Origin: Dehalococcoidia bacterium
GTDB taxonomy: Bacteria > Chloroflexota > Dehalococcoidia > Plut-88900
Assembly: GCA_965207225.1 (NCBI GenBank)
Contig: CBDBLV010000005.1
Coordinates: forward strand, 640,001-704,000
Length of the DNA stretch: 64,000 nt
Reading direction: 5' to 3'
Both the position numbers and the translations under genes were made by a program. Position 1 is the first letter of the stretch. The number at the start of each line of letters is the position of its first letter. Below the pieces are notes generated by a model. It was not told where the DNA came from and made no database searches. It saw only the letters and a program-made list of their open reading frames with translations. Positions 21,857 through 64,000 of this stretch are shown one piece after another.

Positions 21857-21932
21857 GGGGATGTAGCTCAGTTGGGAGAGCGCCGCGTTCGCAATGCGGA
21901 GGCCGGGGGTTCGAATCCCCCCATCTCCACCA
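21857..21932 (+). tRNA. tRNA-Ala (anticodon CGC)
   Basis: GGGGATG/CATCTCC acceptor with G3:U70; anticodon arm CCGCG-TT-CGC-AA-TGCGG; GGTTCGAATCC; encoded CCA; TTGACC-18-TATATT promoter upstream. Confidence 0.97.
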
Positions 21933-59835: not shown

Positions 59836-60335
59836 CAGCTTCGCTCCGGAGATAGCGAACTTCTCTCAATTCCCATCTTGCCCAGCGCCCTGGTCTCCAT
59901 CTCTTTCATTAGCTCCGCCTCGGAGACTATTTCGTGGTCGTAACCCAGAAGGTGAAACACGCCGTGGATCGTCAGGAACGCAATCTCGTCTTTGGTCTCG
60001 TGCCCTAGACCCTCGGCCTGTCGTTGGGCCTGCGGATAAGAGATTATCACTTCTCCCAGGTCCTGCTTGCCGCTCGGTGGGCTCACGAATCCCCCCTCCC
60101 CAACCTCCCCGCCCGTCATCGCGAACGACAGTACGTCCGTCGTCCCCTCCTTGCCCCTGAACCGTGCATTAAGCTCCGCCACCTCCTCGTCCCCCGTCAC
60201 CGCCACCGCCACTTCAGTGGCGTATCTGGCACCCTCTGTGTCCAGGGCGCAGGACACGGCTTTCTCTATCAATGCTTCGTCCAACTTGTCGCGATAAGGG
60301 GGCTCGATGAGAAGGCTTAGATCAAGGGGAGACAT
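59835..60335 (-). CDS. ybeY: rRNA maturation RNase YbeY
   Basis: TDVLSF, HGVFHLLGYDH; TGATG overlap with dnaX. Confidence 0.95.
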   Translation of the reverse strand: MSPLDLSLLIEPPYRDKLDEALIEKAVSCALDTEGARYATEVAVAVTGDEEVAELNARFRGKEGTTDVLSFAMTGGEVGEGGFVSPPSGKQDLGEVIISYPQAQRQAEGLGHETKDEIAFLTIHGVFHLLGYDHEIVSEAELMKEMETRALGKMGIERSSLSPERS

Positions 60336-60793
60336 GCCACCAATGGCCGGAATCTGTGCTCCGATAATAGCACAGGCCCCCCGCGCCGAAAACCCCAACT
60401 CCACCTCCAAAGTGACTCTCTCTTCCCTCCCATTCCAATGCCTCCTTAACTGCAGGGATGTCCCTAGTGGGCATCCTCCCCGGCGGACGGGCCACCCACC
60501 CCGAGTTGCGTCGGACCCGTCACCCTTGCCTCCCCTCTCACCCCGACATCCCCCTTCCCATCCCGATGCCCCGCGGGGATCTGCAGCACCCCTCCGTCAC
60601 CCACCTCGTCCCCTGCAATCAGCCACTCGCTTACACGTCATTCCTGCGGAGGCAGAGCCTGCCCCTGCGAAGGCAGGGGAATCCATCCCTCCTAAATGAT
60701 CGCCTGCATCCCGGCAATCCACATCTAACCCCCTCCCCAAACCCACCCTACTCATTGCCACCCTCACACCTACCTGTCTCCTCCCTTGGCAAA

Positions 60794-60828
60794 GACATAT
60801 CAAAAATGCACTGCATTTTTGATATGTC
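60794..60828. repeat. perfect 17-bp palindrome (module B copy 2)
   Basis: GACATATCAAAAATGCA-C-TGCATTTTTGATATGTC. Confidence 0.95.
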
Positions 60829-60901
60829 AATAAAACAGGACGGGCGGGTGGGACCCATAATCATCCCGGGGTGGCGAGGAATTGTGTCCTTTCTTTATCC
60901 C

Positions 60902-61006
60902 CAGTACTGAACTAGAGGCCCACGTGGGTGCAGCGCACCCACGTGGGCCTCTGTTCTTCTTTCCCCCTCTCCCTTATAGGCCCTAAGGGAGAGGAGGACC
61001 AAGGGG
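60902..61006 (+). repeat. family A repeat, copy 6
   Basis: AGAGGCCCACGTGGGTGC-AGC-GCACCCACGTGGGCCTCT plus the second hairpin. Confidence 0.92.
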
Positions 61007-61044
61007 CCGGGGGGATATTCCTCCCAAAAGCCGCACATTTGCTC

Positions 61045-61073
61045 TTGACACACCTGTCCGACAGCACTATCAT
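61045..61073 (+). promoter_or_regulatory. sigma70-like promoter with no clear downstream CDS
   Basis: TTGACA-17-TATCAT. Confidence 0.65.
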
Positions 61074-61303
61074 ATCCTGCGGTCGAACAAATATCTGAAA
61101 ATAAAAGGAGGAACCAAAAACTTAGGGAAGCCCCCGAGACCCCACCCGAGGACTCAACGCCCTAGCCCATCCCAATACCTCTCGCCTCCCATAGGGAGGC
61201 GACCGGCCAATCGCCCCCCTTGCGAGGCAGGAAGGTTGCGGCACAAGCGAACAGCGCCATCTCCTCATCCCTTCGGGTCCCGTGCCCCTTCCCCACCCAT
61301 CCA

Positions 61304-61614
61304 GGCGATGGAAGGTCCACAACATTAACCGGCACGCCCCTCATATAGGAGCCCTGCCGAAAAACCTCGGGCCTTATGGCCCTTGGAAAAATCTCCCCCG
61401 TCGTTCCCCTCGGAGATTCCCATTAACCCAGCGACGGCAGCGAGAAAACGTGTTCCCCACCCCTCCGAGTGGGTCGAGCCAAACTGAAAAACTGGTGGTA
61501 GAGATGCCCTCTGGCGAGAAGTCCTCGCTTGTCTGCCACGTAACAACAGGAACACGGGGCTGAACCAGGCTGGCCTCCCGCCCCCTGAAACTGAGTCCCG
61601 GACCTTCCATCGCC
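61304..61614 (+). ncRNA. candidate structured non-coding RNA (or MITE) of unknown family
   Basis: Perfect 15-bp terminal inverted repeat enclosing several helices, A-rich linkers and a possible pseudoknot. Confidence 0.5.
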
Positions 61615-61893
61615 GACCCTCTCCAAAACAGACAAAACGAAAACCGAGACCCCAAAACCGAATAACCGACCTCAACCGCCATTCCCGACCCTGATCGGGA
61701 ATCCATCCCACGGGTGCGGCCGCTCATGCTGAGCGTAGTCGAAGTACGAGCGGGGAGGCGAGGCTAGAGTGAAGAGCCAAGTGTTGATTTCCCTTAAACA
61801 ATCAAAGCCGTGCTTGAAAACGCAAAACAATCAAAACCCAGCAACTGAAGAAAGCCCTGGCGCATCACTAATCTGTCGGGCCGGTTCGCCCTG

Positions 61894-61922
61894 TTGACAA
61901 CCTTGACAAAGGGTGCTATCAT
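61894..61922 (+). promoter_or_regulatory. sigma70 promoter of rpoB
   Basis: TTGACA-17-TATCAT with extended TG. Confidence 0.75.
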
Positions 61923-62060
61923 GGCAGGTCGAATGCAGTACTGCGTGGGCCCCTGCCCCATTCCTAGCTCAGCCCCCCCAGCTGACCAATTGTACTCACC
62001 CCTCACCTAGTTTAGGCATAGGTATTTTAATATCCGTTTGCCTTGGAGGTTCTAGCCGCG

Positions 62061-64000
62061 ATGGTCTCCACTCTCCCCGCGCCCGAAGCCCTCGACCGCT
62101 CCCGTGTCTCCTTCGCCAAGCTCCCCGAAGTCCTCGAAATTCCCAGCCTGATCCTCGTCCAGCTGGACTCCTACGAATGGTTCCGTAAAGAAGGCCTCAA
62201 GGAACTCTTCGAAAAGGTCTCGCCTATCTCCGACTACGCCGGCGGCAGGTTCGACCTCCACTTCCTCGACTACGAGTTCCGGGATCCCACCAAGGACATC
62301 GACGCGGACGGCGAACCCCTCCCCTGCCCCTTGGGCAACCCCGACTGCCATAAGAAGCACTTCCCCAAGTACGACGAGAGTGAATGCCGTCTCCGGGACG
62401 CCACTTACGCAGCCCCCCTCTACGTCAAGGTCCAGCTTGTAATCAAGCAGACCGGCGAGGTCAAGGAGCAGGAATTGTTCATGGGGGACATCCCCCTTAT
62501 GACCTCCCAGGGTACCTTCATCATCAACGGCGCCGAGCGTGTGGTAGTCAGCCAGCTCGTCCGGTCCCCCGGCGTCTACTTCACCACGGACACCGACCCC
62601 TCAACCGGCCGTGGCCTCTGCTCCGCCAAGCTCATACCCAACCGGGGCGCTTGGCTCGAACTGGAGACCAGCAACAAGAACCTCATCTCTGCCAAGGTCG
62701 ATAGGAAGAGAAAGATCCCTGTCACTACCCTGCTCCGTTGCATCGGCTACGGGGAAAATAAGTCCATCAGGGAGCTCTTCAAAGACATCGACCTTGATGA
62801 CGAACATTCCTACATTGAAAGGACTCTCGAAAAAGACGGCGGCATCGAGTCCCGTGAAGAAGCCCTTATCGAACTCTACCGCCGCATCCGCCCCGGCGAG
62901 CCCCCCACCGTCGAAAACGCCGAAAACCTCCTCAAGGCCCTCTTCTTCAACCCCCGCCGCTACGACTTCGGGAAGGTTGGCCGTTACAAGGTCAACAAGA
63001 GGCTCGGCACGGAACTCCTCAAGGCCGCAGGCTTGGATGACGATGAAGCTCGAAAAGTCTACCCTGTCGTGGCCCCCGGCATCGTCGATGAAGACGCCGT
63101 CCGCTCCCTCCTTCCCGAAGACAAAGCCGACAAGGTCATCGAAGTCCTCAGCAACCGCGCCCTCAACAATGAAGATCTCCTTGCAATCGTTCGCAAGGTC
63201 ATCCTGGTCAACCAGGGCAAGGACACCGTCGACGACATCGACCACCTGGGCAACCGGCGGGTGAAGGGTGTCGGCGAGCTTATCCAGAACCAGTTCCGCA
63301 TCGGCCTCATGCGTATGGAGCGGGTAGTCCGTGAGCGCATGACCCTTACAGAGGCCGAGACCGCCATGGCCCAGGCCCTGGTCAACGTCCGACCTATCGT
63401 AGCTGCCATAAAGGAATTCTTCGGCGGCTCCCAGCTTTCCCAGTTCATGGACCAGACCAACCCCCTCGCCGAGCTCACCCACAAGCGCCGCCTCTCAACC
63501 CTCGGCCCCGGCGGACTATCCAGGGAACGCGCCGGCTTCGACGTCCGGGACGTCCATCACTCCCACTATGGCCGCATCTGCCCCATCGAAACCCCGGAAG
63601 GCCCCAACATCGGCCTCCTTGGCTCCCTCGCCACCTATTCCATTATCAATGAATACGGTTTCATAGAGACTCCTTACCGCAGAGTGCTAACGGAGGTCCC
63701 CTGCGATTCCGAGGAACTGCTGGGCAAGACCCTCACCGAAAAGGTCATGGGCACCGACGGCAAGGCAATCGCCAAGGCTGGCAGGGTGATTTCCAAGGCC
63801 TTGGCCACCAGAATAAAGAAACTCGAGGGCGTCACCGTCAAGGTCCAGCCCTTCGTTTCTTCAAAGATCGACTACCTGGCTGCCGATGAAGAAGAGCAGT
63901 TTGTCATTGCCCAGGCCAACTCGCCCCTTGACGACCAGAACCAGTTCACCACCGACAGAATCGAAGCCCGTTTCGGTGAGTCCACCAGGATAGAGACCCC
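62061..64000 (+). CDS. rpoB: RNA polymerase beta subunit, 3'-truncated by window edge
   Basis: GGAGG RBS; FIINGAERVVVSQLVRSPG, DDIDHLGNRR, SQLSQFMDQTNPL, HYGRICPIETPEGPNIGL. Confidence 0.99.
   Translation, partial: MVSTLPAPEALDRSRVSFAKLPEVLEIPSLILVQLDSYEWFRKEGLKELFEKVSPISDYAGGRFDLHFLDYEFRDPTKDIDADGEPLPCPLGNPDCHKKHFPKYDESECRLRDATYAAPLYVKVQLVIKQTGEVKEQELFMGDIPLMTSQGTFIINGAERVVVSQLVRSPGVYFTTDTDPSTGRGLCSAKLIPNRGAWLELETSNKNLISAKVDRKRKIPVTTLLRCIGYGENKSIRELFKDIDLDDEHSYIERTLEKDGGIESREEALIELYRRIRPGEPPTVENAENLLKALFFNPRRYDFGKVGRYKVNKRLGTELLKAAGLDDDEARKVYPVVAPGIVDEDAVRSLLPEDKADKVIEVLSNRALNNEDLLAIVRKVILVNQGKDTVDDIDHLGNRRVKGVGELIQNQFRIGLMRMERVVRERMTLTEAETAMAQALVNVRPIVAAIKEFFGGSQLSQFMDQTNPLAELTHKRRLSTLGPGGLSRERAGFDVRDVHHSHYGRICPIETPEGPNIGLLGSLATYSIINEYGFIETPYRRVLTEVPCDSEELLGKTLTEKVMGTDGKAIAKAGRVISKALATRIKKLEGVTVKVQPFVSSKIDYLAADEEEQFVIAQANSPLDDQNQFTTDRIEARFGESTRIET

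Follow-up and report, generated by a model that had tools for sequence, protein, structure and literature searches.

Dispersed, transcribed, structured intergenic repeats are a known kind of bacterial element, and so are multi-copy genes for small RNAs (sRNAs). The CREE of Neisseria measure about 100–155 bp, have inverted repeats that are their true ends and duplicate a TA target, and the REP/BIME, ERIC and BOX repeats are palindromic units of 35–200 nt without a promoter of their own. HEARO and omega RNAs were first met as orphan motifs. The sRNAs NsiR1 and Yfr2 of cyanobacteria are siblings of 60–150 nt that occur in a few to about a dozen copies, often in tandem and each with its own promoter, and they carry unpaired, conserved C-rich motifs that could pair with ribosome-binding sites. 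CREE are described as dispersed intergenic inverted-repeat elements whose transcripts form a long duplex; they can provide promoters and can be bound or cut by RNase III, with an effect on adjacent genes (PMC2649163). REP/BIME, ERIC and BOX are likewise described as modular, mosaic intergenic repeats that are non-coding, transcribed with their neighbours and restricted to a genus or family (PMC2229807), and HEARO and the IscB omega RNA as multi-helix RNAs of 200–400 nt with many copies per genome (PMC9755519). Here we compare with these systems a folded 311-nt segment at positions 61304–61614 of a 64,000-nt stretch of DNA from a Dehalococcoidia bacterium (GenBank assembly GCA_965207225.1, contig CBDBLV010000005.1, positions 640,001–704,000 of the forward strand), referred to below as the window.

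The segment had been proposed in an earlier note, made from the letters of the window, as an orphan, structured, non-coding RNA-like element of the + strand with its own promoter. Our analysis suggested, with a probability of roughly 0.5, that it is the folded core of one copy in a multi-copy, genus-wide family of self-contained non-coding transcription units. The family as a whole combines a constant frame with interchangeable folded RNA cores, lies upstream of genes and, among the genomes sampled, is specific to one genus of uncultured Dehalococcoidia. What sets it apart within these known kinds is the constant frame with at least 12 exchangeable large structured cores; a search of the literature at the level of abstracts found no description of such an element.

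The repeated unit and its distribution

When the 311-nt core was searched with blastn against its own assembly (4.03 Mb, 92% complete), 14 near-full copies were found, including that of the window, at 88–100% identity, together with many paired matches to the ends only, spaced 400–560 nt apart. In an alignment of the copies with their flanks, the conserved part started at the promoter and spanned about 61045–61667, whereas the extent originally given, 61304–61614, covers the core alone. Left-frame and right-frame profiles gave 46 and 41 nhmmer matches, respectively, in the same genome, which combine into 39 paired units. Seven extra units have the same closing stem with a different promoter and leader and no tail, and the total sharing the closing stem is about 46. 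The interiors fall into 12 sequence clusters of 198–538 nt from stem to stem, and whole units measure 0.5–0.8 kb.

By blastn the core was detected in 8 of 8 other genomes of the genus; of the remaining groups searched, none of 3 further genera in the family and none of 29 further families in the class gave a match. The left-frame pattern (at most 2 mismatches) occurred 5–50 times per genome in all nine genomes of the genus, with 0 matches for the reversed-pattern controls, and 0–2 times, the control level, in the other 392 genomes of the class, a set that includes one unpublished genome, G243, which carries no positive claim. The frame occupies 25–50 loci in most genomes of the genus. A single orphan structured RNA gene would agree with the lack of an Rfam match and with the significant fold (see below). 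Since the window's own genome holds 14 near-full copies and about 46 units, and every genome of the genus carries several, the label ‘orphan’ is refuted and the single-gene explanation has practically no chance of being right.

Twenty public runs from 12 studies contain the stretch or part of it; those that bear a label are metagenomes of sponges or corals. Searches of plasmids and phages with 61045–61670 by blastn gave no match. Four pattern matches in IMG/VR, without a right arm or other similarity, and one unrelated ‘uncultured bacterium’ contig from a contig scan were rejected as chance.

Every paired unit consists of five parts: a sigma-70-like promoter, a C-rich leader, a closing duplex, a multi-hairpin interior and an A/C-rich tail. 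The parts of the window copy are as follows.

61045..61073, + strand: unit promoter TTGACA-17-TATCAT, 11 of 12 consensus positions
61080..61303, + strand: C-rich leader, conserved among copies and overlapped by RNA-library contigs
61304..61318, + strand: 5' arm of the closing duplex, GGCGATGGAAGGTCC, part of a perfect 15-bp inverted repeat
61319..61599, + strand: interior (‘cargo’) of the window class, from RNAfold, RNAalifold and curated pairs
61331-61358 and 61369-61382, + strand: interior hairpins (RNAfold)
61391-61445, + strand: long irregular hairpin TCTC..CCGTCGTT / AGCGACGG..GAGA (RNAfold, between-class changes)
61452-61476, + strand: hairpin with loop CCCTCCGA (RNAfold, covariation)
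61495-61540, + strand: hairpin GTGGTAGA../..TCTGCCAC enclosing GCGAG/CTCGC (RNAfold)
up to 61597, + strand: 3' hairpins (RNAfold)
61600..61614, + strand: 3' arm of the closing duplex, GGACCTTCCATCGCC, completing the perfect 15-bp inverted repeat
61615..61667, + strand: A/C-rich, G/U-poor tail (GACCCTCTCCAAAACAGACAAAACGAAAACCGAGACCCCAAAACCGAATAAC), conserved in the 39 paired units

The promoter, which the earlier note had already pointed out upstream of the core, is one of just two such sites in 60500–62200, where shuffled sequences average 0.6. Promoters of three near-consensus types precede 38 of the 39 paired units, one unit being without: TTGACA-17-TATCAT (18 units) and TTGACA-17/18-TATATT (8 units) were identified by regular expression, and TTGAC(T/A)-16-TA(A/C)A(A/C)T (12 units) was read by eye. 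The leader is 150–230 nt long across the units and begins with AAGGAGGAACCAAAAACCCAGGGAAGCCCCCGAGACC; AAGGAGGA is present in 35 of 39 leaders, and that of the window holds AAGGAGGAACC at 61105–61115 with no start codon behind it. Optional hairpin modules (e.g. 61182–61202) are followed by the small hairpin CACGGGTCCCGTG (61274–61284 in the window) and then by CCCTTCCC...CCA, with CCCTTCCCCACCCATCCA immediately before the window's stem.

The closing duplex, GGCGAUGGA...UCCAUCGCC, is extended to 15–21 bp among the units. Its outer portion, GGCGATGGA / TCCATCGCC, is identical in all interior classes, and its inner stem is of type A (aGGTCC/GGACCt) or type B (AGACGCC(CTGG)/(CCAG)GGCGTCT). Both arms were recovered in 51 of 53 copies from 7 genomes, 37 of them exact and 14 with one substitution; in the remaining 2 they were not found. 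The tail is about 55 nt long and reads GACCC(C/A)...CAAAAC...AGACAGAAC...CCCCACAAC(C/T)GAA(T/C)A, with a composition of 44% A, 40% C, 11% G and 5% T (39 units of 58 nt each).

The seven units with another leader lie at G000 (the window's own genome) C3:255804, C3:167325, C5:1737116, C5:1330715, C2:179533, C5:1005077 and C5:1189885. Six of the seven have a leader with AAGGAG-ATG and an arginine-rich start (MRRNSLISSRPTR...), and in the three longest the module formed by the long hairpin and the hairpin with the CCCTCCGA loop is tandemly duplicated. We considered a coding reading of these units, as AAGGAG-ATG opens a long frame. Since the frame at the entry into the core shifts by one base between copies (-93 vs -94), and the open frame also continues across unrelated repeat modules, as expected of a composition effect of the C-rich strand, we concluded that this long frame is not a gene; a short leader peptide may be made.

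Sponge metatranscriptome contigs cover 61104–61377, 61134–61293 and 61487–61642, which weakly supports transcription; as assembled contigs they give no ends, strand or level, and DNA carry-over is possible. RNA library X20 has no cover of 60900–61103 or beyond 61678 and library X19 leaves most of the unit without cover, absence of cover not being evidence in either case.

Fold, covariation and non-coding character

The + strand of 61304–61614 folds at -126.7 kcal/mol in RNAfold (z = -5.7; 0 of 100 shuffles as good), and the - strand gives z = -3.9. The 591-nt predicted transcript has a fold z of -5.1. RNAfold and RNAalifold reproduced at their original positions the helices CGGCA/TGCCG, GGGCC-TTAT-GGCCC, GTGGTAGA/TCTGCCAC, GCGAG/CTCGC and CCGTCGTT/AGCGACGG of the earlier note, and the perfect inverted repeat of 15 bp that closes the core also lies exactly where it had been placed.

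To examine the structure, 45 copies of the window class, drawn from 7 genomes, were aligned. RNAalifold predicted 69 pairs, 7 of them with double changes. For a curated set of 72 pairs, 97.9% of the cells were paired, as against 37–45% when the partner was slid; 9 pairs were changed on both sides (1–5 when slid; reached by 5 of 500 shuffles), as were 35 cells (3–12 when slid; reached by 0 of 500 shuffles), although these controls are inflated, the copies being related and the structure having been derived from the same copies. Most of the covariation falls in the hairpin at 61452–61476 (5 pairs), the loop CCCTCCGA of which is invariant. Given the alternations among G-C, G-U and A-U (e.g. UG 25, CG 11 and UA 9 at one pair), pairing was 97.9% for the + strand as against 93.0% for the - strand, in agreement with the strand preference proposed earlier from G-U pairs.

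Similar results were obtained outside the window class. A second interior class (n = 10) has 9 doubly changed pairs vs 0–4 when slid, and a further one (n = 4) has 6 vs 0–1. Between classes, CCGTCGTT/AGCGACGG is replaced by CCGTCTCT/AGAGACGG or by CCGTCGC/GCGACGG, and T-CTC/GAG-A by A-CTC/GAG-T, all compensatory; in the unit upstream of rpoB in genome G005 the inner closing stem has become AGACGCCC/GGGCGTCT, with the outer 8 bp unchanged. Judged from the aligned sequences, the interiors preserve their helices by way of compensatory substitutions and G-U exchanges consistent with the + strand.

Not all of the pairing first proposed belongs to this fold. The segments CCGTCGTT and AGCGACGG had been read as a pseudoknot over the helix AATCTCC/GGAGATT; since the between-class changes are compensatory, we favour an ordinary helix nested inside TCTC/GAGA. 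The hairpin AATCTCC/GGAGATT has 5–7 of its 7 pairs in all 45 copies, and the version with hairpin and pseudoknot stays a less likely alternative. The long-range helix CGTGTTCC/GGAACACG has all 8 pairs in 7 of 45 relatives and at most 4 in 25 of 45, and lies outside the conserved fold. The doubling of CATTAACC, to which attention had also been drawn, is not kept by other copies.

CCUCC motifs recur: one is in the loop at 61460–61467, another in that of the 3' hairpin GGCCUCCCGCC, and many tails have one too. The fold of the whole transcript shows pairing between leader GGAGG and tail CCUCC. As many tails lack CCTCC while the leader is invariant, this pairing is a guess.

No reading frame is open throughout the copies (one copy from the same genome, for example, has at most 54 open codons of 143 on the + strand), and 1-nt insertions or deletions separate the copies, which bears out the view that the core holds no credible coding sequence. 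Three features expected of an independent non-coding RNA gene family, namely an own promoter, a covarying conserved structure and no reading frame, were found, and the description of the segment as a structured, non-coding, + strand RNA-like element with its own promoter is supported by the fold z, the pairing and the promoter site.

Nor could the core be assigned to a known RNA family, as had been stated before. Searches with Rfam 15 of 60000–64000 and of 17 loci representing all cargo classes gave only chance hairpin matches far below the gathering thresholds; the families covered included RNase P, SRP, tmRNA, 6S, T-box, riboswitches, HEARO, GOLLD, ROOL, OLE and others. ARAGORN found no tRNA- or tmRNA-like fold in 18 loci. 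A scan of the whole window at the gathering thresholds found nothing in the unit; elsewhere it reported an ordinary T-box leader (1319–1545; 123 bits, above gathering) and tRNA, where an ordinary tRNA-Ala(CGC) gene lies at 21857–21932.

Neighbouring genes, exchange between loci and rival explanations

The intergenic region that holds the window copy (60600–61850) is a mosaic of at least five independently repeated modules, as judged by blastn against the same genome. Those closest to the unit, and the promoter of the next gene, are listed here.

60898..61006, + strand: repeat module M2, 109 nt, directly upstream of the unit (blastn, inverted repeats)
61676-61755, + strand: module M6, hairpin TTCCCGA..TCGGGAA, several dozen copies (independent blastn matches)
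61792-61839, + strand: module M7, AAACAATCAAA repeats, about ten copies (independent blastn matches)
61894..61922, + strand: rpoB promoter TTGACA-17-TATCAT with extended TG (promoter scan)

M2 carries a 19-bp G+C-rich hairpin (60913–60953) followed by TTCTTCTTTC, a terminator-like arrangement, and a second hairpin at 60962–60998. Roughly a hundred blastn rows in the same genome match the M2 region, starting at 60884–60910; the module is contiguous with the unit in six other copies. It resembles a standardised intrinsic-terminator module positioned after genes. Further upstream, module M1 (60730–60880) is a dispersed repeat with about 15–20 blastn rows in the same genome and a perfect 17-bp palindrome, GACATATCAAAAATGCA/TGCATTTTTGATATGTC, at 60794–60828. 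M6 and M7 lie outside the unit, between it and the rpoB promoter. The likely start of rpoB is the ATG at 62061, behind a 140-nt 5' untranslated region, and the product has RpoB domains by Pfam. The rpoB promoter and 5' untranslated region are conserved in 6 of 6 genomes of the genus that were compared, two of which are unit-less there. The initial transcribed motif GGTCGAA is common to the rpoB promoter and the unit promoters.

Of 37 units with a callable neighbour, 33 point in the direction of the next gene downstream, where gene calls were crude (open reading frames with a filter on G+C content at third codon positions, GC3) and two units, including that of the window with its neighbour rpoB, had no callable gene. 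Part of this bias is built in: around half of the units are flanked by genes that diverge, so that a unit faces a gene whichever way it points; with both neighbours in the same direction, 14 units are sense and 3 antisense. The gene start lies 41–729 nt beyond the tail in most cases. Eight downstream genes identified with Pfam are unrelated (RpoB, MmgE/PrpD, NusA, two Amidohydro_2, CoA-transferase III, Peptidase_M24 and MoaA), and no protein gene was found to recur beside the units.

This arrangement raises the possibility that the unit is a cis-acting long 5' leader, transcription of which continues into the gene, with the core and C-rich tail serving as a constant attenuator or insulator that depends on Rho or RNase III and sets the expression of that gene. 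Besides the orientation and spacing just described, it is favoured by the lack of a terminator between the tail and rpoB in the window, by the likeness of the tail composition to a Rho utilisation site and by a single contig of library X19 that covers 61866–62016, beginning upstream of the -10 box of the rpoB promoter. However, the genes behind the units have retained promoters of their own, and where a filled and an unfilled locus were compared, in one pair, the promoter of the gene persisted although the unit was missing. Genes as unrelated as those for RpoB, NusA, MoaA, amidohydrolases, a CoA-transferase and an M24 peptidase have one core class in front of them, and sister species carry different cores at the same locus with the gene unchanged. 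Terminator modules follow some units only: by a crude regular expression, at least 9 of the 39 units have the start of M2, with its terminator-like hairpin, no more than 170 nt behind their tail. We regard a cis-acting leader as an unlikely explanation.

Comparison of orthologous loci showed that units occupy the same sites across species, but which interior they hold is not tied to the site. In front of rpoB, the interior is of the window class in genomes G000 and G008, with a different subtype in each, and G007 and G005 carry other interiors within the same frame. At three further loci the interiors of G008 or G007 are unrelated to those of G000, although identity is 86–100% in the tail and the gene, and at one of these loci in the leader as well. 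The breakpoints of replacement lie at or just inside the arms. The positional ortholog was the most similar copy to a given copy of the window's genome in just 1 of 14 cases. At one locus, aligned to the base, the unit present in G001 is replaced in G000 by about 100 nt of unrelated repeat, with no target duplication. An M7-like CAATCAAA sequence occupies the unit-less site at G000 C4:291.7-292.0 kb. Since interiors swap at fixed loci, orthologs are rarely the most similar copies and no target duplication was seen, these sequence comparisons carry the signature of homologous exchange among dispersed copies, and would not fit cut-and-paste transposition.

The same observations bear on the possibility that the unit is a non-autonomous mobile DNA element, like a miniature inverted-repeat transposable element (MITE) or palindrome-associated transposable element (PATE). 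The arms and hairpins would then be DNA or single-stranded DNA signals for a transposase or recombinase acting in trans, and promoter activity and the RNA fold would be by-products. The many dispersed copies at 88–98% identity, the presence or absence of the unit at the same locus between species, the invariant, non-covarying arm sequence, as a protein-binding site would have, and the cargo-exchange breakpoints at the arms all speak for it. The arms are internal, however, and do not form the termini of the repeated unit as in a MITE: about 260 nt upstream and 55 nt downstream are conserved beyond them, with no inverted-repeat relation between the two flanks. Neither a target-site duplication nor a clean empty site was found at the one filled/unfilled locus. 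The earlier note had named many copies with target-site duplications as the sign of a plain MITE; the copies proved to be many, the duplications were missing and the 15-bp repeat is internal. Different species have units at orthologous loci, the alternations that involve G-U speak for one strand, and no longer, gene-carrying element with the same ends was found. In a search for such an autonomous partner among arm-like 11-mer pairs at most 3 kb apart, two spacings recurred, 2710 nt in 5 copies and 738 nt in 3, and both turned out to be chance matches within unrelated repeated genes. Five near-identical copies of a segment of at least 2.7 kb, with a protein-coding look and unrelated to the units (G000 C2:18065-20774, C3:36270-38979, C5:1843128-1845837, C5:1047945-1050654 and C4:676159-678870), may be an insertion sequence or a multi-copy gene. 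Profiles for the Y1 transposase (PF01797) and TnpB (PF07282) gave 0 matches in the window's 92%-complete genome, with control matches in 6 and 8 of 14 genomes, and the IS110 DEDD recombinase (PF01548) likewise gave 0 matches there. Taken together, the evidence makes a mobile DNA element unlikely.

Another candidate is a guide or scaffold RNA for a protein in trans (omega-RNA-, bridge-RNA-, Y-RNA- or retron-like), the frame of which would bind the protein and the variable interior or flank give specificity; the earlier note had raised a retron-like or guide RNA of this sort. The constant frame, variable interior, invariant stem, high copy number and length of 200–540 nt resemble HEARO and omega RNAs (PMC9755519). 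The genome also has four reverse transcriptase (RVT_1) loci, two being identical frames of 586 aa and two of about 645 aa.

G000 C2:158087-158773: RVT_1 gene
G000 C5:1548409-1549095: RVT_1 gene
G000 C5:1553608-1554405: RVT_1 gene
G000 C5:1671488-1672288: RVT_1 gene

By their coordinates, none of these is within 15 kb of any unit, and what lies directly downstream of the stem-closed RNA is not a reverse transcriptase, as in a retron, but RpoB, NusA and others. Rfam gave no match to HEARO, IS605-orfB or similar families. The Ro60/Rsr TROVE domain (PF05731) had 0 matches in the same genome, as did the TnpB, Y1 and IS110 profiles above, and no partner gene recurs beside the units. Thus, we found no partner, and a guide RNA is very unlikely.

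Several points weigh against the family of transcription units that we favour. In the window class, 10 of 14 pairs of the closing duplex and 11 of 13 pairs of the long hairpin at 61391–61445 never vary; since these helices are near-invariant, covariation support comes mainly from one helix (5 pairs) and from the comparison between classes, and the controls were inflated as stated. The RNA-library evidence has the limits given above. The orientation bias fits a cis role equally well as an independent RNA gene. In the window copy no terminator was found behind the tail and before the promoter of rpoB, so that transcription could run on into this gene. Finally, the dispersed copies are 90.6–97.4% identical, and a mobile element would look alike.

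Proposed mechanism and comparison with known systems

If the units are non-coding transcription units, as we favour, each would be transcribed from its own promoter, the RNA measuring about 0.6 kb. We predict that a protein recognises or processes the invariant duplex, with RNase III as the candidate enzyme, and its processing could release or stabilise the folded core by analogy with rRNA stems. The genome encodes one RNase III gene and one Rho gene. The unstructured tail, with C in excess of G, is a putative Rho entry zone, and where M2 follows, its hairpin is a putative intrinsic terminator; one or the other would end the transcript before the promoter of the neighbouring gene. Released cores may act as structural or regulatory RNAs. 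It is a guess that their CCUCC loops pair with GGAGG (Shine-Dalgarno-like) sequences, including that of the unit's own leader. The family probably spreads and is reshuffled by homologous recombination and not by transposition.

A bolder idea, which we think quite unlikely, is a natural ‘RNA cassette’ system in which a constant expression and processing frame at 25–50 promoter-proximal sites would serve at least 12 large RNAs shuffled at the arms in an integron-like manner, with the CCUCC-loop cores forming a tunable pool that binds Shine-Dalgarno sequences or a protein in the sponge symbiont.

If the units are expressed as proposed, about 0.8% of these symbiont genomes would represent a large folded non-coding RNA family absent from the databases. 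At least 12 new candidate classes of structured RNA, for which nature supplies the covariation data, come with the family, as does a test case for regulatory cassettes being spread and reshuffled by recombination and not by transposition. Through it, gene expression may become more accessible in uncultured Dehalococcoidia associated with sponges and corals, and for annotation it accounts for long ‘empty’ intergenic regions upstream of rpoB, nusA and leuS in the genus.

The units share with CREE the dispersed intergenic location and inverted repeats that would form a duplex in the RNA. Unlike CREE, they are 0.5–0.8 kb long, have an internal repeat, no duplication, a promoter upstream and a large covarying interior of 12 classes. 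The mosaic of repeat modules in the window's intergenic region recalls REP/BIME, ERIC and BOX, whereas the unit itself is a full promoter-to-tail cassette with a swappable structured core. HEARO and omega RNAs differ in that the units here show no covariance-model match, no adjacent nuclease gene and 0 TnpB matches, and are fixed at orthologous loci. Like NsiR1 and Yfr2, they are repeated small transcription units with their own promoters and C-rich motifs, but they number 25–50, are dispersed, measure about 600 nt each and combine one constant frame with 12 different cores. There is also a likeness in layout to the processing stems of rRNA operons, the substrates of RNase III, where a long-range duplex also flanks a large structured RNA behind a strong promoter and leader; the RNA enclosed here is not rRNA, tRNA, tmRNA or RNase P RNA. 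For a constant frame with exchangeable cores, neither bacterial repeats nor families of sRNAs are known to provide a close precedent.

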